From NCBI RefSeq assembly GCF_000026545.1, contig NC_011601.1: a stretch of DNA of 64,000 bases; one strand, written 5' to 3'. Positions 17,797-54,777 of the stretch are shown here, piece by piece; within the stretch, counting starts at the first letter, position 1; each line of letters starts with the position of its first letter. The notes below the pieces were generated by a model. That model had not been told where the DNA came from and did not search any database. It saw only the letters and a list, made by a program, of their open reading frames with translations. The stretch comes from Escherichia coli O127:H6 str. E2348/69. GTDB lineage: Bacteria; Pseudomonadota; Gammaproteobacteria; Enterobacterales; Enterobacteriaceae. Made by a program: the position numbers and the translations under genes.

Positions 17797-17901
17797 ACGG
17801 TTATAAATCAACATATTGATTTATAAGCATGGAAATCCCCTGAGTGAAACAACGAATTGCTGTGTGTAGTCTTTGCCCATCTCCCACGATGGGCTTTTTT
17901 T
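17797..17901 (+). ncRNA. rprA: RprA small regulatory RNA
   Basis: Sequence acggttataaatcaacatattgatttataagcatggaaatcccctgagtgaaacaacgaattgctgtgtgtagtctttgcccatctcccacgatgggcttttttt matches remembered RprA, ending in hairpin + T-run. Confidence 0.85.
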
Positions 17902-41596: not shown

Positions 41597-42577
41597 CTAA
41601 CGTCCTGCTTTTAACAATAACCAGATAAACACCGGCGCACCCAACGTTGCGGTGACCACGCCAATTGGCAGCTCTGCGGCAGCTAATGCCAGGCGCGCTA
41701 CAATATCGGCCAGCAGCAATGCGCTCGCCCCTGCCAGCGCGCAGCCGGGAAGTAATACGCGATGATCGGTTAAACCACACAGCCGGAGAATATGTGGGAT
41801 CACCAGACCAATAAAGCCGATAGCACCCGCCAGCGCCACACTGACGCCAACCATCCAGCCGGTCGCTGCCACCAGCACATTGCGCCAGAACCACAGGGGT
41901 AAACCCAGTTGCCGCGCCGAGATCTCGCCAAGTGCTAATATATTCATCGGCCTGGACTGACAACAGATCCACAACAACACGGGGATCAATGCCAGCATCA
42001 GCCAGCTTTGCCGCCAGTCTACGCCGCCAAAACCGCCCATCATCCAGTACATCAGCTGACGTAAATCAACAGAGGTGGAAAAGTAGATAGCCCACGTCAT
42101 TAGTGCGCTACAGATAATCCCTAATGCAACGCCAGCCAGCAATAACCGACTGGTCGAAAGATGACGACGGGCGAAACGTAAGAGTATTAAAGTGATGATA
42201 AGTGCGCCTGCAATCGCACACAGCCCTAGCGCCCAGTTGGGGAGTTGCCCTTGCCCAAGCAATACCGCGGCGATAAGCCCCACGCCTGCGCCGTTAGAGA
42301 CGCCAAGTAGTCCAGGTTCTGCCAGAGGATTTTCAAACAACGCCTGCATTACAGCGCCGGATATAGCCAGCGCCGCACCAACCAGCAATACAGCCAGCGT
42401 ACGTGGCAGGCGAATTTGCCAGACGAACAGTTCGCCACGAGGAGAAAACCAGTCACCTGGCAAAATCCATAGTTCACCGGCGCAAAGGCTTAAGAGAAGC
42501 GCCAGTAGCATCAAAACTGACAAGCATAATAACCAGCGAATATTTTGTCGCTGTTGTTGGCGGGCAAGTGTCAGCAT
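41597..42577 (-). CDS. btuC: Vitamin B12 ABC transporter permease
   Basis: 326-aa polytopic membrane ORF. Confidence 0.9.
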
Positions 42578-42766
42578 GGTATCCGTTCTGCTGAAGTGTC
42601 ATGGCGTTGATTTTACGGTGACTCTTCGACAGTGAAAAGAAAAAAGGCCGCAGAGCGGCCATAAACACAAACAAAAATCAATAAGTTAGATAATTATCAA
42701 AGACTTACAGACACACAAAAACACAGCCAACCACAACAAATAACAGGGATGTGGTCACTTTGTGGA

Positions 42767-43183
42767 TCATTCGCTCCCCTCTTTTTCCTTATTTCGTTGA
42801 ACGCCAATTGCGACACACGTACTAAGCAAATCTTTACATTTCTCTACATCTTCAGACTTACGCAATTTGATGCTTTTTACAGACTGCGGGCTACTGTCCG
42901 TAGCACGATACATCGTTATTTCAATATCATTTCGGTCTAAGAGTCCCATAATGGCTTTTGCAACCTCCACACCCTTCTTCGCGAAATCAAAGAACAGAGC
43001 AAGTTTATATGGATTTTCGACGGAAAAAACTTCAATTTTGCTAAAACCAACATCGTGTAGAGAAAAATATTGCTCAACCTCATCTCGAAGTTCTGGATCG
43101 CATACAATGTCTATTCTCCAGTACTGACCTAAATGCAAATCGCTATTAACTGTTTTTTCCACAACATCCTCCTTACCCAGCAA
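42767..43183 (-). CDS. Hypothetical protein (138 aa), AT-rich, immediately downstream of and overlapping the int stop
   Basis: Complete ORF with acidic/lysine-rich composition; no family recognised. Confidence 0.45.
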   Translation of the reverse strand: MLGKEDVVEKTVNSDLHLGQYWRIDIVCDPELRDEVEQYFSLHDVGFSKIEVFSVENPYKLALFFDFAKKGVEVAKAIMGLLDRNDIEITMYRATDSSPQSVKSIKLRKSEDVEKCKDLLSTCVAIGVQRNKEKEGSE

Positions 43184-44147
43184 TAGGATTAAATCTCACC
43201 GCATCCTGCAAGTAATCCGGCGCAAGATGGGCATAAATCATCGTTGTCTGAATCTTTGCGTGCCCCAGAATTTTCTGGAGCGTCAGAATATTGCCGCCGT
43301 TCATCATGAAATGACTGGCGAAGGTGTGGCGCAGCGCATGAACAGCCTGGCCGTCAGGAACATCAGGTGCGACCGTTTTGATGACATCGCGAACCAATGG
43401 ATAATCCAGCGTCGGAAACACCAGTTTCCCGCCCCGTTTTTTGATCTTTTCAAACAGGCTTTCAGAAATAGGAACGGTACGGTTTTTGCTGTTCTTCGTT
43501 TTTGAAAAAGTGATTCGACAATGAAGAACACGGCGCTGCTCCAGTGCCGCTACCTCGCCCCATCGCGCCCCGGTCGACAGAAGGATTTCGACAGCCAGCC
43601 GTTCATCGGGATTTTCAGCCAGTGCATCCAGCAACTGAACACATTCAGACTTACTCAGATATCCCATTTCGCGCTCGTTAACCTTCATTCCTTTAAGGCC
43701 TTGAACGGGGTTATCGTTAAGAAAATGGCCGGATGAGATGAGTGCGGTAAACATCGCGCTTAACGCCCCAATCTCTCGATTAATGGTGCTGGGCTGTATC
43801 CCCTGCTCTATCCTGGACACACGTAGCTCGGTGAGCATCGTTGTATTAAGTTTATGCACACACGGGTCATCCATTGCCTCACTCAAGCGCAGCAATTTAA
43901 GGCGCGTGTTATGCCCTGACTTCATTAGCTGGCCGTGGTATTTCCACCACAAGTCAATAAGCACCGACAGCGGACGGCGATCAATGGAGTTTCCTTTCCA
44001 CTCATTGTTATGCTGTTGCGCCAGCACCCACCGCTCATATAAAACTGCATCCGATTTCGTTTTAAATTTTTTGCGAATGCGTTTGCCTTTACGCCCCTCA
44101 GGGCGCATGTCAAGAAGATACCCTCCCGGAATTGATTTTATGCTCAT
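43173..44147 (-). CDS. int: Tyrosine integrase (P2 Int-like)
   Basis: Strong similarity to P2 integrase (…EGRKGKRIRKKF…, …LSTGARWGE…, …HALRHTFASHFMMNGGNILTLQKILGH…MIYAH…); start taken at internal Met (MSIKSIPGGY) of the 374-aa ORF. Confidence 0.9.
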   Translation of the reverse strand: MSIKSIPGGYLLDMRPEGRKGKRIRKKFKTKSDAVLYERWVLAQQHNNEWKGNSIDRRPLSVLIDLWWKYHGQLMKSGHNTRLKLLRLSEAMDDPCVHKLNTTMLTELRVSRIEQGIQPSTINREIGALSAMFTALISSGHFLNDNPVQGLKGMKVNEREMGYLSKSECVQLLDALAENPDERLAVEILLSTGARWGEVAALEQRRVLHCRITFSKTKNSKNRTVPISESLFEKIKKRGGKLVFPTLDYPLVRDVIKTVAPDVPDGQAVHALRHTFASHFMMNGGNILTLQKILGHAKIQTTMIYAHLAPDYLQDAVRFNPIAG

Positions 44148-44196: not shown

Positions 44197-44505
44197 TTAA
44201 CCGGGCTGTGTACCAGTCTTGCGGGATTTTTGAGAAGACGATGTGTTTTCTGGCCCATCAGGGGAGAGAGAGGGACTGATCTGCCCAGCAGCCTCATTTG
44301 TTTTTCCCGTCATAAGCCAATTCATGTACTTAAAAAAGCGAGGGTGATTAACAATCTTGATAAGCACTTCGCCCCCTATGTTTTCAATCCGCCCCGTTTC
44401 ATAACGACGCAAAGTGCCGATAGGCACATCAATCAGGCCGCAAAATTCTTCGCGCGTTAAATCCTCTGATTCACGAATCACTCTAATTTTTTCACCGATA
44501 AGCAT
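44197..44505 (-). CDS. C: Immunity repressor (P2 C-like, HTH)
   Basis: 102-aa ORF divergent from cox, HTH at N-terminus, resembles P2-family C repressors. Confidence 0.75.
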   Translation of the reverse strand: MLIGEKIRVIRESEDLTREEFCGLIDVPIGTLRRYETGRIENIGGEVLIKIVNHPRFFKYMNWLMTGKTNEAAGQISPSLSPDGPENTSSSQKSRKTGTQPG

Positions 44506-46940: not shown

Positions 46941-49763
46941 ATGACGGCAGAGTACATCAGGGACTGGCAACAACCGCGCCACGCAGTGGGGCGTGAAGGA
47001 ACGGGGATCCCCGCTCCTGAATCCGCGCTTTCCTCCTGGCTGGATGCCTACCGGGCAGAGAACGAGCACCGCCAGGAAATGGCTGATGCGGCGTTCTCCG
47101 CCACGCCGCTGGGCAACCTGATTAATAAAAGCCTGGACGCACAGGAAAAACAGGACAAAACCATCACACTGGCAGGAGACGCCAGAAAACAGGCACGCGG
47201 CGCGGTGGATGAAGCCATGGCCTCGCTGCGCCTGCTGCCGTCCTATCTGCGCGATCCGCTTATTCGCCACCTCTCCTTCCTGCGCAAAAAACAGGAAGCC
47301 GATCGTCAGAAAGGAAAAAACGCCAGGCAGGCAGAACGCTATGCGCGTGGGACCCTGCGCAAAATATTCGAACGTCTGGAGCGCACCGATCACCGCTGGC
47401 TGACACCGGGTTATCGCTCCCTTGCCGGACGCGAACGCCTGGACGATTTGCTTTACCTGCCGCAGCTCAACAAACACCAGATAAAGACGCTGGCAACCAT
47501 GACGGCGGCGATGTTCAGCAGCACCTTCGAAAAACTCTGCGATGGCTTTGGCGCGACCGATGGCGAGCTGACCATGGATGTAACCCTGAAGGCGTATCAG
47601 ATGCTGGCCCGCATGGCGTTACACCTGCACGCCATGCCTCCACATTATGACGCACTGACAACAGACAAAGACCGGAGGAACGAACCGGACACGGAGCTGC
47701 TGCCGGGCGCAATCCTTCGCCTGACCTGTGCGGAATGGTGGAAACGCAAACTGTGGCTGTTACGTTGCGAGTGGAGAGAAGAACAACTCCGCGCCGCCTG
47801 TCTGGTTTCCAGAAAAACATCGCCCTATCTGAGCCAGGACGCGTTAAGCGAGTTTCGCGCACAGCGCGAGAAAACACGCGATTTCCTGAAAAGTTTCATG
47901 CTGGAAAACGAAGACGGGTTCACGATTGATCTCGAGACAGTGTATTACGCGGGAGTAAGTAACCCGGTTCACCGTAAGGCAGAAATGATGGCCACCATGA
48001 AGGGACTGGAACTTCTGGCCGAAGCCCGTGGCGACAGAGCGGTGTTTCTGACTGTCACCTGCCCGTCAAAATACCACGCAACAACGGAGAACGGTCATCC
48101 GAACCCCAAATGGAACGGGGCCACCATGCGCGACTCCAGCGATTACCTGGTTAACACGTTTTTTGCGGCGGTCCGCAAAAAACTGAACCGCGACGGCCTG
48201 CGCTGGTATGGCATCCGCACGGTGGAGCCTCACCATGACGGCACCGTGCACTGGCATATGATGGTCTTTGCTCATCCGGAAGAAATCGACAGCATCGTGA
48301 CCATCACCCGCGATATTGCCATTCAGGAAGACCGCCACGAGCTGGGCAATGATATTACTCCGCGCTTTAAGGTGGAGTACGTCGACGGCACCAAAGGCAC
48401 GCCAACCAGCTACATCGCCACCTACATCGGAAAAAACCTGGACAGCCGCGCCGTGGATGGCATCGACCCGAAAACGGGCAAACCACGCGTTGACCACGAA
48501 ACCGGAAAATCAATGGCCGAGAGCGTGGAGCGCGCCATCGGTTGGGCACGCCTTCACCGGGTCCGCCAGTTCCAGTTCTTTGGCATCCCCTCCCGTCAGG
48601 TGTGGCGTGAACTCCGCCGCCTTGCCAGCCAGATGGCACGCAACCCGGAAGGCCCGCAACGGCTGAAGGATGACGCAATGGATGCGGTACTCGCTGCCGC
48701 TGATGCCGGATGTTTTGCCACCTACATAGAGAAACAGGGCGGTGTACTTGTTCCACGCAAAGACTACCTGATTCGCACCGCCTACGACCTCGCCGATGAG
48801 CTGAACGATTACGGCGAACAGAGTGTACAGATTTACGGGATCTGGTCACCACTCATCGGGGAATCCTCCCGTGTGTGCACGCACCCGGATAACTGGAAGC
48901 TGGTAAGACGTAAACCGGAACAGGAAGGCAGCGCCCACGAAAATGGTTTTGACCTTCAGGGCGGCCCTGCCGCCCCTTGGACTCGTGGCAATAACTGTCC
49001 CCGTGTACAGGAAACGGACAACAACGGGACAGAACAGCCGGAAGAACGGCCAGCACCGTGGCCGCAGCTCCCTGACGGCGTTGAAGTGAACGAATGGGTG
49101 CGCTCACTGAAACGGCACGAACGCCGGGCGCTGATGCGTTCGCTTCGTGACAAACAGGCAAAAAACAGCAGTGATGAAATGCAGAGCTGGACACAGAGCC
49201 GCAAACAGCAGCGGCCTTTGCCTGATAACCACGAATTACTCGCTAAAGAATGGCGGGAGTCTGCTGAATCTCTCGGCCTGCATATCGGTGAACAGCAGAT
49301 GCAGCACCTGTTACGGGGCGGCAGCCTGTACGTTGACGGCAGCATCATTGCACCGCAGGGATATGAAATTGTACGTAAACCGGATACCCGCCCGGACAGC
49401 CGAATCACGCAGCTCTGGCAACGCCTGAGCCGTAACCACGGCGTAAGCAGCACGGAGATCCGCCATAACCCGGTCGCCAGCTATCTGGAACAACTAGGGG
49501 CATCAGACCCTGAAGCCGCCGCACGCCTGGCATCCACACTTCAGCAAGACCAGAACACCATGAAAACACCCGTTACCGTACTTTCTGACATGCTGCGCGC
49601 CATCCGCGACGCAGAGCACGAACAGAGAATCAGTGAAACAACTGAACGCGCCCGCCGCAAAGCAGACCTGCTGCGGGGTGGCCTGACCAGTGGAAACAAA
49701 AAACAGACAAAAACGGGATTCACAAATCCCGTAAATGAGCAAAAAACGCGCCGCGATATATGA
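46941..49763 (+). CDS. A: Rolling-circle replication initiator (P2 gpA-like HUH endonuclease), 940 aa
   Basis: HUH motif (GTVHWHMMVF) and Y-x3-Y active-site pair (YIATYIGKN) as in P2 A. Confidence 0.85.
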   Translation: MTAEYIRDWQQPRHAVGREGTGIPAPESALSSWLDAYRAENEHRQEMADAAFSATPLGNLINKSLDAQEKQDKTITLAGDARKQARGAVDEAMASLRLLPSYLRDPLIRHLSFLRKKQEADRQKGKNARQAERYARGTLRKIFERLERTDHRWLTPGYRSLAGRERLDDLLYLPQLNKHQIKTLATMTAAMFSSTFEKLCDGFGATDGELTMDVTLKAYQMLARMALHLHAMPPHYDALTTDKDRRNEPDTELLPGAILRLTCAEWWKRKLWLLRCEWREEQLRAACLVSRKTSPYLSQDALSEFRAQREKTRDFLKSFMLENEDGFTIDLETVYYAGVSNPVHRKAEMMATMKGLELLAEARGDRAVFLTVTCPSKYHATTENGHPNPKWNGATMRDSSDYLVNTFFAAVRKKLNRDGLRWYGIRTVEPHHDGTVHWHMMVFAHPEEIDSIVTITRDIAIQEDRHELGNDITPRFKVEYVDGTKGTPTSYIATYIGKNLDSRAVDGIDPKTGKPRVDHETGKSMAESVERAIGWARLHRVRQFQFFGIPSRQVWRELRRLASQMARNPEGPQRLKDDAMDAVLAAADAGCFATYIEKQGGVLVPRKDYLIRTAYDLADELNDYGEQSVQIYGIWSPLIGESSRVCTHPDNWKLVRRKPEQEGSAHENGFDLQGGPAAPWTRGNNCPRVQETDNNGTEQPEERPAPWPQLPDGVEVNEWVRSLKRHERRALMRSLRDKQAKNSSDEMQSWTQSRKQQRPLPDNHELLAKEWRESAESLGLHIGEQQMQHLLRGGSLYVDGSIIAPQGYEIVRKPDTRPDSRITQLWQRLSRNHGVSSTEIRHNPVASYLEQLGASDPEAAARLASTLQQDQNTMKTPVTVLSDMLRAIRDAEHEQRISETTERARRKADLLRGGLTSGNKKQTKTGFTNPVNEQKTRRDI

Positions 49764-49839: not shown

Positions 49840-50799
49840 ATGAAAATTTGTATCGACGACGGCTCCACCAACATCAAGCTGGCATGGACTGAGAACGGCG
49901 AACACCGCAACGCCATCAGCCCGAACAGCTTCAAGTCGGAATGGTCTGCGCCGTTCGGTGGCACGCAGCCCGCGAACTACATGCTTGATGGCGTGCGCTA
50001 TGGTTTTGATCCGGTCAGCGATCGCTTTGTCCAGACGACCGACACGCAATACCAGTACAGCGATGTGAATGTCATTGCCATTCATCATGCGCTGGTCAAA
50101 TCAGGCATCACGCCACAGGAGGTGGATGTGGTTGTCACCCTGCCACTGAGCGAGTATTTCGACACAAACGCACAGCCGGACATGGCCAACATCAACCGCA
50201 AAAAAGCGAACGTTATGCGCCCGGTGGAGTACCAAAACGGCGAGGCATTCACTATCCGTAACGTGCGGGTTATGCCTGAATCCATTCCGGCTGGCTTTAA
50301 AGCACTGGCTGACATGAGTCCGTTTGAATCCCTGCTGATTGTGGATTTGGGCGGAACCACGCTGGATGTGGCAAAGGTTCAGGGGCAACTGGCAGGTATC
50401 AGCCAGGTGTTTTGCGATCCACACGTAGGCGTTTCTCTGATGGCCGATGCCGTGCTGTCGGTGATGGCCACCAACGGTATGCGCACCAGTCACCACATCG
50501 CCAATACCATTATCGAACATCGCCACGATGAAGCCTGGCTGCGCCAGCACATCCACAATGACGCGCATTACGCCAGCCTGATGGCAGTTATTCGTGAAAA
50601 GGAGGAAACACTGAAACAACGCGTGATCCGCGCGCTGGCGGTTTTTTCGGGTTACGGGCGGGTGATGGTTGTCGGTGGAGGGGCGGAGATTGTGGCACCC
50701 GCTATCCGCGAAGCCTGCGGAGTTAATGCGACTTTCATCGCGGACGGGGTGCCACAGTTTGCTCTGGTTAATGGGCTGTACGCAATGGACAAGGAGTAA
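49840..50799 (+). CDS. parM: ParM/StbA-like actin-type partition ATPase
   Basis: IDDGSTNIKL...ISPNSFK...YSDVNVIAIHHAL...RKKANV...VMPESIPAG...DLGGTTLD...VVGGGAE closely parallels plasmid R1 ParM. Confidence 0.85.
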   Translation: MKICIDDGSTNIKLAWTENGEHRNAISPNSFKSEWSAPFGGTQPANYMLDGVRYGFDPVSDRFVQTTDTQYQYSDVNVIAIHHALVKSGITPQEVDVVVTLPLSEYFDTNAQPDMANINRKKANVMRPVEYQNGEAFTIRNVRVMPESIPAGFKALADMSPFESLLIVDLGGTTLDVAKVQGQLAGISQVFCDPHVGVSLMADAVLSVMATNGMRTSHHIANTIIEHRHDEAWLRQHIHNDAHYASLMAVIREKEETLKQRVIRALAVFSGYGRVMVVGGGAEIVAPAIREACGVNATFIADGVPQFALVNGLYAMDKE

Positions 50800-50803
50800 A
50801 CCA

Positions 50804-51115
50804 ATGACGACTCCAACCAGACGGATAAGTTTCTATCTGAAGCCCACCGCCGTCAAGAACGAAGGAGAAGCATGCGCCTGGCTGGACAGCCTTACACCAG
50901 AAGCCCGCAAAAGCGGCCAACGCGTGGCTTTTCTGGCCGGGCTGGCACTTCTGAAAATGAATCCGGCAGAGGCTTACCGACTGGCTGCATGGGCTGATGA
51001 TGAGGTGTTATCAGTGACACAAACCAAGACAGAACGCCCCGCGTCACAGCCAGTATCAACCGCACAGATAACCAGTCAGATGGCCGGAAATATCCGGGCG
51101 TTATTTCCTGAATAA
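50804..51115 (+). CDS. parR: ParR-like centromere-binding adaptor
   Basis: RRISFYLKP...WLDSLTPEARKSGQRVAFLAGLAL...RALFPE parallels R1 ParR (RTIAFKLNP...TLDSIP..RS..RAALTAGLAL...SLFPKE); internal-Met start. Confidence 0.7.
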   Translation: MTTPTRRISFYLKPTAVKNEGEACAWLDSLTPEARKSGQRVAFLAGLALLKMNPAEAYRLAAWADDEVLSVTQTKTERPASQPVSTAQITSQMAGNIRALFPE

Positions 51116-51493: not shown

Positions 51494-52576
51494 ATGGTAA
51501 ACGTGAGGGAGGATGAACTTTTCAAACTCATCGAGCAAGGCATCAAAGGCAACGCAAATGCATTTACACTCCTATGCAGAAAGATGATTAACAACATCCG
51601 TAAAAATGATGAGGCTTTAGCTTCTAAGCTGGCTTCGTTAGTTGCTGAGGGAACAGTATTACGTGGGGCATCTAGTAAGGCTCCTATGCCTGTGGATGGA
51701 GACTCCAGACGAAACCTTTTGCAGGAAACATCTGTCAACGCAATTGTTGAAGAACCTGTATGGAATACGGATATCTCAAAGAAGCTGGAGTCAATTGTTA
51801 ACGAAAGAGAGAATGCGGTTTCTTTGTTCAAAGCTGGTCTTGAACCTGTGAAGACGGTTTTACTTTCTGGCCCGCCAGGCGTAGGCAAAACAATGTCCGC
51901 ACATTGGCTTGCTGCAAAGTTAAATTTACCTCTTTTAACATTGGATCTCTCATCTGTAATGAGTTCTCTTTTGGGAAAAACAGGTAATAATATTAAATCC
52001 GTTATGGATTATGCCAAAGAGAAACCATGTGTCCTTTTGCTTGATGAATTTGATGCTGTTGCAAAAAGACGTGATGATGACAGGGACGTTGGAGAATTAA
52101 AACGTTTAGTTACTGTACTCCTACAGACCATAGATGAGTGGCCAGCGACCTCGCTTCTTGTTGCTGCGACTAATCACCCTGATATCTTAGATCCGGCTGT
52201 TTGGCGTCGATTTGAGCACATCCTTAAATTTAATATGCCATCAGTAGAACTGATAGATAGATATTTAGTCAATCATAATATTGAACCTGAACTATCTAAA
52301 AAACTTGCACCATTATTAGATGGCATGTCCTTTGCCATCATTAACCGTATTTTGAATTTCTCCAAAAAGAATGAGGTACTTAGAAATATTCCATTTGAAA
52401 GCTCATTAATAGAAGCCGTAATTACGGAGAGGGTTTCATTGGATGAGTTTAGCGATAATGATCTCAATATAATTAAATATCATTTTGACGGTTTTTCAAA
52501 TAGGAAGATAGCTGAATTAGTTGGTGTTTCACATCCAACAATCGCGAATAAATTACAAAAGTGGGGGATTAAATGA
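51494..52576 (+). CDS. Classic-clade AAA+ ATPase with C-terminal LuxR/GerE-like HTH (360 aa); candidate defence component
   Basis: Walker A GPPGVGKT (aa 126-133), Walker B LLLDEFD (aa 181-187), sensor-1 ATN, second-region-of-homology-like DILDPAVWRRFEH; C-terminal NRKIAELVGVSHPTIANKLQKWGI HTH. Confidence 0.85.
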   Translation: MVNVREDELFKLIEQGIKGNANAFTLLCRKMINNIRKNDEALASKLASLVAEGTVLRGASSKAPMPVDGDSRRNLLQETSVNAIVEEPVWNTDISKKLESIVNERENAVSLFKAGLEPVKTVLLSGPPGVGKTMSAHWLAAKLNLPLLTLDLSSVMSSLLGKTGNNIKSVMDYAKEKPCVLLLDEFDAVAKRRDDDRDVGELKRLVTVLLQTIDEWPATSLLVAATNHPDILDPAVWRRFEHILKFNMPSVELIDRYLVNHNIEPELSKKLAPLLDGMSFAIINRILNFSKKNEVLRNIPFESSLIEAVITERVSLDEFSDNDLNIIKYHFDGFSNRKIAELVGVSHPTIANKLQKWGIK

Positions 52577-54777
52577 TGGAAAGGAACTTACTTTTAGGTA
52601 ACGGTCATGTTCTGACAAAAAAGGAACCTTTGCCTAAAGGAAGGGATGGTAAGCGCTATCCCTATACTCTTGAAGAAGTAAGGGAGCATTTAAACCCAGA
52701 GATTGATACTTTACTCTCACGCTTTCGCAGTTTGGATGATGCGGCTAAGCCAAGGGGGGAGAGTGTATTCAATTTAACTTTACACCCAGCGTTTTTGGGT
52801 AAAAGCTACTTTCCGGAAGGATTGCTTAGAGCGACAGGTTTACGGGATGTCGGCAGCCGTCAGGTAATCATTCGCCCACGGAAAGCGGCACGTCAGTGCG
52901 ATCAGAATAAGGACTTAGTAACGGCGCAACTGTTTGTTAGCGGTGATGATGATGCCGTTATAAGATTTAAGGAAATTTTAAATTCCCCTACAGCTCCGAA
53001 GGGCGTACAAAAGGATTTGATCGAAATTGAAAGTGTTAGCTTTTTTGAAGGAAAAGAGAGAGCACGCAATTTTGAGCATGCGAAAAGTGATTTGATAAAA
53101 TTTGAAGTGGTTCTTCATGCTGGGGTTGAAGACGATGATATCGTTAAAGCCTATATTAGCTATGCGGCACAATATGATGTCTCTGTTGATTACAAAAGTA
53201 GAATCCAAGTTGGTGGGCTGACTTTCATCGTTGCACACGCGCGACCTGAAGATATGAAAAAAACACTCGATTTTTCATTAATCCGCGTTGTGCGGCCGAT
53301 GCCGTCTCTCAGGTGTACTCAGCCGAACATTGTCAGAAAGTTATCTAATATAGTTACACCGGAGCTCCCTAATTCTAAAGCTGTTCTTGAATCCGAACGT
53401 ATTGCCATTTTTGATGGTGGCTTGGGGACAGCTGACTTGAGTAATTGGGTTACGGAATACGTGTATCCAGACACCAAAGAAACAAGCGGATTATTATTGC
53501 AGCACGGTAATGAAGTGACATCCACTTTCTTATTCGGACGTGTCGAGGAAAATGCACCTTCTTTTAAAAGACCGTTTATGAATGTAGATCATTATAGAGT
53601 TCTTTCACCGACATCAGGTGACAATGGCAATTGGGATTTATTTGATGTCCTTAAGAAAATACAGTCCGTTCTTGATAGTGGTGACTATAAGTTCGCTAAT
53701 CTAAGTATTGGTCCTCATCTTCCAATTGGTGATGATGAGGTTCATGTATGGACTGCTGTTTTAGACCAAATCTGTGCTAAGCATGGGATATTACTTACTG
53801 TTGCTGTTGGGAATGATGGCAATGAGGACGGTGATGCAGCGAGAATACAACCTCCTTCCGATATGGTAAACGCGCTAGCGATTGGTGCTGCTGATCGTAG
53901 CGGTGAAAAATGGGGGCGGGCACCATATAGCTGTATTGGGCCAGGCAGAAGCCCCGGATTCGTTAAACCTGATGGTGTTATTTTTGGTGGAAGCGACGAC
54001 GAGCCTTTTTACACTTACAACCCTCTGCTTGGTTCTATAGTTGGAGTTCAAGGAACCAGTTATGCCTCTCCATTAGCATTGAGAACGGCCGCTGGAGTTG
54101 CGGCTCTATCAGGAACTCCATTGAACACCATTGCATTGAAAGCGTTGCTTGTTCATCATGCTGAAACATCAAGAAAATATTCGCGTGAACATATCGGTTG
54201 GGGACGGTTTAGTGAGGATCCTAACGTTTTAATCGATTGTCCAAATGATACTGCTACAGTAATTTACTATGGTTCATTAGCAAAAAATAAATATTTAAGG
54301 GCACCGATCCCATTCCCTGATGTTCCCTTTGACGAAGCATTTGAGCTTACCGCTACTTTATGCATTCAAACCCCAGTAGATCCTGAACATTCAGTAAACT
54401 ATACAAGGGCCGGTATGCAGGTAACTTTCCGCCCAAGATTCGGCCTTGACGATACCGATACAGATGATTTCTTTGGTCAAAAAAGCCAGTATAAGACTGA
54501 AAGGGAGTGTAGGAGTGAAGGTCATAAGTGGGAAACTTGTTTGCACAGAAGCAAAAAGTTCAGTGCTGATACATTATTAAGCGATCCAGTTTTTGATATA
54601 CGGTATCATGCCCGAGATTCTTCGCGCCATGTTAAGGGAGTTTCAGCCCCTGATATGCAATATGCGATGGTAATAAGCGTAAGGGTAAAAGACTTTGATT
54701 TATATAATGTTATTCGCCAGCGATATACAATTCTGAATCCTATTCAACTGCGCACACAAATTTCTCTCGACACGTAA
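52573..54777 (+). CDS. Subtilisin-like (S8) serine peptidase, 734 aa, no signal peptide; candidate defence effector
   Basis: Catalytic order D-H-N-S: IAIFDGG (D281), HGNEVTS (H311), VAVGNDG (N414), GTSYASPLA (S496); ~270-aa N-terminal and ~230-aa C-terminal regions unassigned; start overlaps ATPase stop (ATGA). Confidence 0.85.
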   Translation: MMERNLLLGNGHVLTKKEPLPKGRDGKRYPYTLEEVREHLNPEIDTLLSRFRSLDDAAKPRGESVFNLTLHPAFLGKSYFPEGLLRATGLRDVGSRQVIIRPRKAARQCDQNKDLVTAQLFVSGDDDAVIRFKEILNSPTAPKGVQKDLIEIESVSFFEGKERARNFEHAKSDLIKFEVVLHAGVEDDDIVKAYISYAAQYDVSVDYKSRIQVGGLTFIVAHARPEDMKKTLDFSLIRVVRPMPSLRCTQPNIVRKLSNIVTPELPNSKAVLESERIAIFDGGLGTADLSNWVTEYVYPDTKETSGLLLQHGNEVTSTFLFGRVEENAPSFKRPFMNVDHYRVLSPTSGDNGNWDLFDVLKKIQSVLDSGDYKFANLSIGPHLPIGDDEVHVWTAVLDQICAKHGILLTVAVGNDGNEDGDAARIQPPSDMVNALAIGAADRSGEKWGRAPYSCIGPGRSPGFVKPDGVIFGGSDDEPFYTYNPLLGSIVGVQGTSYASPLALRTAAGVAALSGTPLNTIALKALLVHHAETSRKYSREHIGWGRFSEDPNVLIDCPNDTATVIYYGSLAKNKYLRAPIPFPDVPFDEAFELTATLCIQTPVDPEHSVNYTRAGMQVTFRPRFGLDDTDTDDFFGQKSQYKTERECRSEGHKWETCLHRSKKFSADTLLSDPVFDIRYHARDSSRHVKGVSAPDMQYAMVISVRVKDFDLYNVIRQRYTILNPIQLRTQISLDT

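Follow-up and report, generated by a model that had tools for sequence, protein, structure and literature searches.

The stretch of DNA analysed here (64,000 nucleotides of Escherichia coli O127:H6 str. E2348/69, referred to as the window) contains, at positions 42578–42770, what is very probably the attL of a complete-looking 36.46-kb P2-like prophage that has integrated site-specifically at the terminator of ihfA. The window is 100% identical to the E. coli E2348/69 record NZ_CP059840.2, with the plus strand of the window corresponding to the minus strand of the record, and the right-end locus taken from this record (L003, 26.5 kb) serves as the attR reference. The empty site (attB) is represented by strain CP52E (locus L002), a second prophage at the btuC–ihfA site by strain 2014C-4587 (locus L005) and a diverged relative by GCA_917069455.1 (locus L006), which is another enterobacterial assembly.

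The last host gene before the prophage is btuC (41597..42577, minus strand, from both the open reading frame list and the RefSeq annotation), which is the first gene of btuCED and has btuE, btuD and nlpC downstream. A 1-kb junction query (window 42300–43300) was matched in 5,425 of the 5,426 complete E. coli genomes against which it was compared, and in most of the matching genomes homology covers query positions 1–361 only, ending at window position 42660. In the empty site of CP52E, ihfA is located 100 bp upstream of btuC and is followed by pheT and pheS. This site aligns with the window without a mismatch as far as ...GGCCGCAGAGCGGCC at 42660; the alignment breaks after GGCC, between 42660 and 42661, beyond which the two sequences are unrelated. 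The 58 bp of host leader upstream of btuC (42578..42635, minus strand) are identical to those of the empty site, and phage DNA starts at 42661. An earlier, sequence-only reading of the window had proposed that host synteny runs to btuC and is then followed by a prophage that separates btuC from ihfA. CP52E, in which both genes are adjacent, agrees with this, as do the P2-family integrase, repressor, replication and capsid genes annotated beyond the junction, and the comparison with an uninterrupted btuC–ihfA region that had been recommended for locating the breakpoint places it at 42660/42661.

The att core was defined by three-way alignment of attL (window), attR (L003) and attB (L002), together with exact string comparison. 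It consists of the 25-bp sequence AAAGAAAAAAGGCCGCAGAGCGGCC at 42636..42660, which is perfectly identical across the three sites and is flanked on the left by host DNA in attL and attB, and on the right by host DNA in attR and attB. A search of the window finds no second copy, even with up to three mismatches allowed; the two copies in the E2348/69 record are 36,459 bp apart and there is a single copy in CP52E. The prophage covers the window from 42661 to 64000 and continues for about 15.1 kb past the window end to attR beside ihfA. At this other end pheS, pheT and ihfA are intact, with ihfA located 36.46 kb from the btuC side and its protein carrying the same accession as in CP52E (WP_001229265.1). 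The ihfA gene, the 18 nt downstream of it and its terminator are unchanged at attR, and ihfA is followed by the same 25-bp core and then by the phage hok/gef, ogr, D, tail tube and tail sheath genes. The right junction had been expected to lie outside the window, which indeed ends inside the prophage baseplate genes, and the junction was recovered from the E2348/69 record; the matching direct repeat that had been suggested as a check is present there, perfect over its 25 bp. The same reading had considered the att core to be undefinable, a view that is superseded by the public record and the empty-site genomes, and had named an intact ihfA immediately upstream of btuC as the arrangement that would speak against it; ihfA is intact, but on the far side of the prophage.

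The core coincides with a copy of the ihfA intrinsic terminator (42636..42660, minus strand), which a terminator scan resolves into a stem-loop at 42660..42646 (GGCCGC-TCT-GCGGCC) and a T-run at 42645..42636. On the minus strand, GGCCGCTCTGCGGCC, with six G–C pairs and a 3-nt loop, is followed by TTTTTTCTTT, and the RNA fold has a free energy of −12.3 kcal/mol (z = −3.5 against shuffles). The sequence-only reading had noticed a hairpin with flanking A/T runs here and had suspected a host terminator, and on both counts it was right: the hairpin is real and belongs to ihfA, with the core beginning 18 nt beyond the stop codon of ihfA both in the empty site and at attR. By its sequence features the att core itself is the canonical intrinsic terminator of ihfA, its activity being predicted. 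The copy in attL is located downstream of the phage transcription unit formed by int and a 131-residue open reading frame (ORF131), which runs leftward like btuC, and upstream of btuC, and on the right of its hairpin ATAAA replaces TTTTT. The only promoter-like match for btuC, a weak σ70-like match found by consensus scan on the minus strand (−35 TTTTCA at 42638..42633, −10 TAAAAT ending at 42610), is fully kept in attL.

Very probably, the P2-family tyrosine integrase of the phage recombined attP with attB, the latter being the ihfA intrinsic terminator in the 100-bp ihfA–btuC spacer. We infer that strand exchange took place somewhere inside the 25-bp identity (42636..42660). As attP brings its own copy of the terminator, integration rebuilds a terminator at both junctions. 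At attR, ihfA retains a terminator and its own 3′ end and is intact, and at attL the terminator sits between the phage C–int–ORF131 unit and btuC, with the 58-bp btuC leader untouched. Because the att core is the ihfA terminator, neither ihfA nor btuCED is disrupted, and, with a terminator rebuilt on both sides and the leader untouched, the insertion is expected to be neutral for the expression of both host genes. The predicted excision products would be the btuC leader + AAAGAAAAAAGGCCGCAGAGCGGCC + TTTTTAGTTAGATCAG...ihfA for attB and ...AATCAATTAGTTATTG + core + ATAAACACAAAC... for attP, which is known only as a reconstruction from the prophage ends.

To the right of the attL core, 108 bp of phage DNA (42661..42768) form the P′ arm of attP. 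They are missing from empty-site genomes, and the homology of two prophages with different cargo ends directly after 42771. The arm contains a pair of predicted tandem integrase sites of the P2 type, TGTGGTC-actt-TGTGGAT (42750..42767, plus strand), with the same motif, spacer and orientation as the P2 pairs; in the P2 genome record, two tandem TGTGGAC-nnnn-TGTGGAC pairs, both on the same strand, flank the int-proximal non-coding region on either side. The pattern TGTGGWCNNNNYGTGGA (tandem TGTGGWC-N4-YGTGGA) has one match in the window (42750..42766, 89 nt to the right of the core) and one in the 26.5-kb right-end locus, on the phage side of the attR core, 39 nt from it and in the same orientation. 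The pattern was written after the sequences had been inspected, which makes chance figures for it optimistic; the placement of the motif beside both cores nevertheless mirrors the P2 attP and is hard to put down to coincidence.

The integration host factor (IHF) consensus WATCAANNNNTTR has four matches in the window, two of which are located within the P′ arm. The first, AATCAATAAGTTA (42676..42688, plus strand), is a predicted IHF site; the second, TATCAAAGACTTA (42695..42707, plus strand), also fits the pattern, and was rejected as a functional site on the grounds that it has no counterpart in the diverged relative and is probably fortuitous. The two remaining matches overlap on opposite strands at 17806..17821 (AATCAACATATTG and AATCAATATGTTG), together make up a palindromic site and lie far from the prophage. 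The right-end locus has a single match, 3 nt from the attR core, such that perfect matches are present on both arms of attP, the consensus being short and the DNA AT-rich. The P arm at the other prophage end would, in the proposed scheme, provide its own tandem arm sites and IHF site, and we infer from the motifs that Int and IHF would bind the P′ arm.

The diverged relative lends weight to these assignments. Its layout (int-ORF-attL-btuC-btuE-btuD-nlpC) matches that of the window, with an Int that is 83% identical to the window Int and a homologue of the 131-residue reading frame that is 61% identical, whose own protein relatives carry Salmonella enterica labels. A related core is located in the orthologous terminator upstream of btuC (L006 4496..4521; GGCCGC-AAT-GCGGCC) and keeps the stem and the T-run, with AAT in the loop instead of AGA, suggesting that changes in the loop are tolerated by the integrase or accompanied by changes in it, or else that the loop belongs to the overlap region. 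The P′ arm of this relative is mostly diverged, yet it retains AAATCAAnnAGTTA and the 20-nt GTGGTCACTTTGTGGATCAT at the same distances from the core. The first IHF site is conserved as AATCAACTAGTTA, and the 20 bases at the arm sites are identical, which supports a probable function of the arm sites and of the first IHF site.

The occupied site is found in a minority of the species. Of 5,425 complete E. coli genomes, 5,118 match a 401-bp probe for the empty attB without a break and about 307 match it in split form; in the three split genomes listed, the break leaves query positions 1–212 or 188–401, which overlap by exactly the 25 nt of query 188–212. The 108-bp P′ arm is present in 300 genomes, in one full-length copy each, the int gene in 298 (at ≥95% identity in 292) and the junction including ORF131 in 157. 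About 5.5% of complete E. coli genomes (about 1 in 18) thus have an occupied site, and strains of O55:H7, O157:H7, O111 and O145 are among them. Judged by these matches, a single integrase/attP type is behind nearly all occupancy of the btuC–ihfA site.

The gene content of the element is that of a P2-like phage. The RefSeq order after btuC is a 131-aa hypothetical protein, the integrase, a helix-turn-helix (HTH) repressor, small rightward open reading frames and a replication endonuclease. The integrase (324 aa; 43173..44147, minus strand) is a P2-family tyrosine integrase containing a Pfam catalytic domain (PF00589 Phage_integrase, E 8e-20) and an N-terminal arm-binding domain (PF24624 Int_N, E 1.5e-28), and is 48% identical to the Int proteins of P2 and Wphi over its full length. 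The HTH repressor (44197..44505, minus strand; Pfam HTH_3 and HTH_31) occupies the position of P2 C according to annotation and gene order, and the gpA-type replication endonuclease of the RefSeq annotation (46941..49763, plus strand) follows after the small rightward reading frames, so that the early region has the P2-like arrangement of int and C leftward and the A endonuclease rightward, beside the att site. After the endonuclease come a ParM-like protein and partition genes, an AAA ATPase and an S8 peptidase, and then the late genes, annotated as portal, terminase, scaffold, P2-family capsid, small terminase, head completion, tail X, holin, endolysin and tail. In the identical record Q, terminase P/M, scaffold O, capsid N, sheath, tube, D and ogr are all annotated and follow the P2 order. 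On its gene set, early gene order and flanking repeats, the element is classed as a P2-like (Peduoviridae) temperate phage present as a prophage, and the domains of its integrase, together with predicted arm sites on either side of the core, assign it to the heterobivalent tyrosine integrase systems of the lambda/P2 type.

Free relatives were sought among deposited phages. When the reconstructed attP was compared with 50,697 deposited phage genomes, only its hok/mok segment was matched and none of the genomes spans the core and both arms; a tblastn search with Int found no deposited phage above 60% identity. Since neither search found a close match, no named free phage can be assigned to the prophage.

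The attachment site admits of other placements and the element of other interpretations, which differ in how well they fit the comparisons above. The sequence-only reading took the hairpin to be purely host DNA outside att and put the attL core further right, at about 42665–42766, a misplacement that arose because the host terminator was assumed to lie outside the attachment site. The hairpin is present in empty-site genomes, and hence is host in origin, and 42665–42766 is non-coding and AT-rich, as such a placement would have it. However, attL–attB identity stops at 42660, attL–attR identity spans 42636..42660 only, and the split attB halves in other genomes (the three listed) share exactly the 25 nt that make up hairpin and T-run. 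Nothing in 42661–42768 is repeated at attR or in attB, with the exception of the short AGTTAGAT, a coincidence between the P′ arm and the host DNA to the right of attB; it was considered as an extension of the core and discarded, being displaced by 18 nt and located outside the repeat shared with attR. A second direct repeat derived from 42665–42766 was looked for at the right end (L003 9480–10100) and none was seen. The three-way comparison refutes this placement, to which we assign next to no chance, and leaves the 25-bp core at 42636..42660 with phage P′ arm from 42661 to 42768. With the core in the terminator, the insertion might still alter btuCED or ihfA expression, either through loss of read-through from pheST–ihfA, through added phage transcription or through changed DNA upstream of the btuC promoter. 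Phage DNA does replace the sequence upstream of −84 relative to the btuC ATG, the −35 element of the sole promoter-like match overlaps the T-run of the core, and the right flank of the attL hairpin changes from TTTTT to ATAAA. Against these changes stand the full 58-bp leader and 25-bp core that are still upstream of btuC, a terminator predicted to be able to stop upstream transcription that is rebuilt at both junctions, an ihfA gene unaltered together with its downstream 18 nt and terminator, and the tolerance of the insertion in some 300 genomes; an effect on expression is therefore judged very improbable.

The element might also be a decayed and fixed remnant, or a satellite, that merely keeps its junctions and is no longer a functional integrated phage. 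RefSeq marks an ash fragment and a tail-fibre fragment in the prophage as pseudogenes, because of which its viability is not guaranteed; the deposited phages include no matching free phage, and a few genomes carry a truncated int (81%, 63% or 20% coverage). Set against this, the element retains 36.46 kb and, between int and ogr inclusive, a full set of P2 genes with intact reading frames, both att copies are perfect, and the tail-fibre fragments adjoin an invertase, as an invertible host-range segment would. The patchy spread through about 5.5% of genomes, in many lineages and serotypes and as one copy each, argues for ongoing mobility. We regard a remnant as unlikely and favour a complete-looking P2-like prophage integrated at the ihfA terminator.

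Between the P′ arm and int lies ORF131, a cargo gene of 131 codons (42767..43162, minus strand; RefSeq CDS, WP_000416304.1). The sequence-only reading had listed it as a 138-aa reading frame; the frame is real, but that length counts from an upstream TTG, and 131 aa from the GTG at 43162 is the better choice. Five bases upstream of this GTG ends an AAGGAGG sequence that overlaps the stop codon of int, and because of this overlap ORF131 is probably co-expressed with int. ORF131 has no match in sequence searches of Pfam, NCBIfam, PADLOC and the PDB, and its sole family match is phrog_14142, of unknown function. Its homologue family comprises 11 clusters, which carry E. coli or Salmonella labels where a source is named. 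A Foldseek comparison of the AF2 model of the protein (mean pLDDT 75) with the PDB gave nothing significant (best E 0.05, TM ≤0.37).

In 2014C-4587 this part of the prophage is exchanged. Its sequence is identical to that of E2348/69 through the core and P′ arm to about 42771, and homology resumes at about 43193, in the last int codons; the slot between these points (42772..43193 in the window) is filled in 2014C-4587 by L005 3487..4286, which contains two reading frames, of 145 and 120 aa, that are unrelated to ORF131. The E2348/69 version of the slot, with ORF131, is found in about 157 of the roughly 300 prophages at the site. Since 2014C-4587 replaces ORF131 between identical flanks, the segment that separates int from the P′ arm can be read as an exchangeable cargo slot. 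A broader proposal is that these 400–800 bp form an unrecognised cargo slot that is co-transcribed with C and int during lysogeny, ends at the ihfA terminator and supplies new lysogen functions; we put it forward tentatively and think it rather doubtful. If it were true, the functions of the occupants could be, for example, superinfection exclusion or anti-phage defence.

Further genes were observed in the prophage and near it. The AAA ATPase (360 aa) and S8 peptidase (734 aa) at 51494..54777 match the PADLOC profiles IetA (E 4e-89) and IetS (E 7e-41), and by these matches form an anti-phage defence pair of the IetAS type. The pair is flanked by the replication/partition genes on one side and the portal gene on the other, where the P2 map has tin/old. 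Directly after the P2-type endonuclease, 49840..51115 encodes a ParM-like plasmid segregation ATPase and a protein of the “plasmid partitioning/stability family”, which are unusual cargo for an integrating P2-like phage. Towards the right end, a Hok/Gef-family toxin gene (L003 9887..10027; record 2259886..2260026) is located between ogr and attR, convergent with ihfA; it has its own terminator hairpin, and its mok-like upstream sequence is common to many Stx phages and P88-type phages. A recombinase-family invertase gene outside the window (L003 18358..19944) lies beside tail-fibre fragments, which fits an invertible host-range segment. Inversions have been reported in two P2-like prophage loci of E2348/69 (PMC4272514), one of which may be the btuC–ihfA prophage. 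Also outside the window, in the yniD–thrS interval of E2348/69, L003 962..1742 contains a frameshifted, truncated pseudogene of a ShET2/EspL2-family type III effector.

The exact left boundary of the E2348/69 prophage is fixed by this analysis, with the core at 42636..42660 and phage DNA from 42661, a gain that is mainly one of annotation. The 25-bp attB and the attP of about 190 bp could serve as a further orthogonal integration module of the P2 family, and the variable slot beside int offers a modest lead to genes expressed in lysogens.

A prophage at this site has been described before. The genome paper of strain SE11 (Oshima et al. 2008, DNA Res 15:375, PMC2608844, Table 2) lists PP_SE11-4, a P2-like prophage of about 36 kb that lies “between btuC and ihfA” and is accompanied by a duplication of 25 nt. 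It shares site, phage type and duplication length with the E2348/69 prophage, but it belongs to a different strain, and as the comparison was made through the published table, the cargo of the two may differ. The btuC–ihfA site and the 25-nt length of the core are thus already published and the prophage junction is ordinary, although the SE11 paper says nothing of the duplication being the ihfA terminator, nor of the arms. A full-text literature search returned no direct statement on the P2-like prophage of E2348 at ihfA.

The closest model for the attachment site is P2 itself, in which Int acts with IHF and Cox at attP (PMC3936717). The E2348/69 prophage resembles P2 in its gene order (attP-int-C-cox...A...Q-P-O-N...D-ogr-attP), in an Int of the heterobivalent type with an N-terminal arm-binding domain, in tandem arm sites resembling TGTGGAC that are present on both arms, equally oriented and spaced by 4 nt, and in a match to the IHF consensus, a candidate site, lying between them and the core. 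What IHF and Cox do at the P2 attP was reportedly worked out by Yu and Haggard-Ljungquist. In contrast to P2, the Int of the E2348/69 prophage is only 48% identical, both the core sequence and the place of insertion in the chromosome (here the ihfA terminator) are different, an extra cargo gene is present between int and the P′ arm, and the P′ arm also carries an IHF-consensus site.

P4, P22, 186 and Fels-2 integrate at the 3′ ends of tRNA or tmRNA genes and carry a replacement copy of the sequence concerned. The E2348/69 prophage is similar to these elements in that its attP core repeats a structural element at the 3′ end of the target, in this case a terminator hairpin, because of which the host gene and its 3′ end would stay functional, and the dyad symmetry of the hairpin suits the core site of a tyrosine recombinase. 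It differs from them in targeting a protein-coding gene, at its intrinsic terminator, and in that no coding sequence is duplicated.
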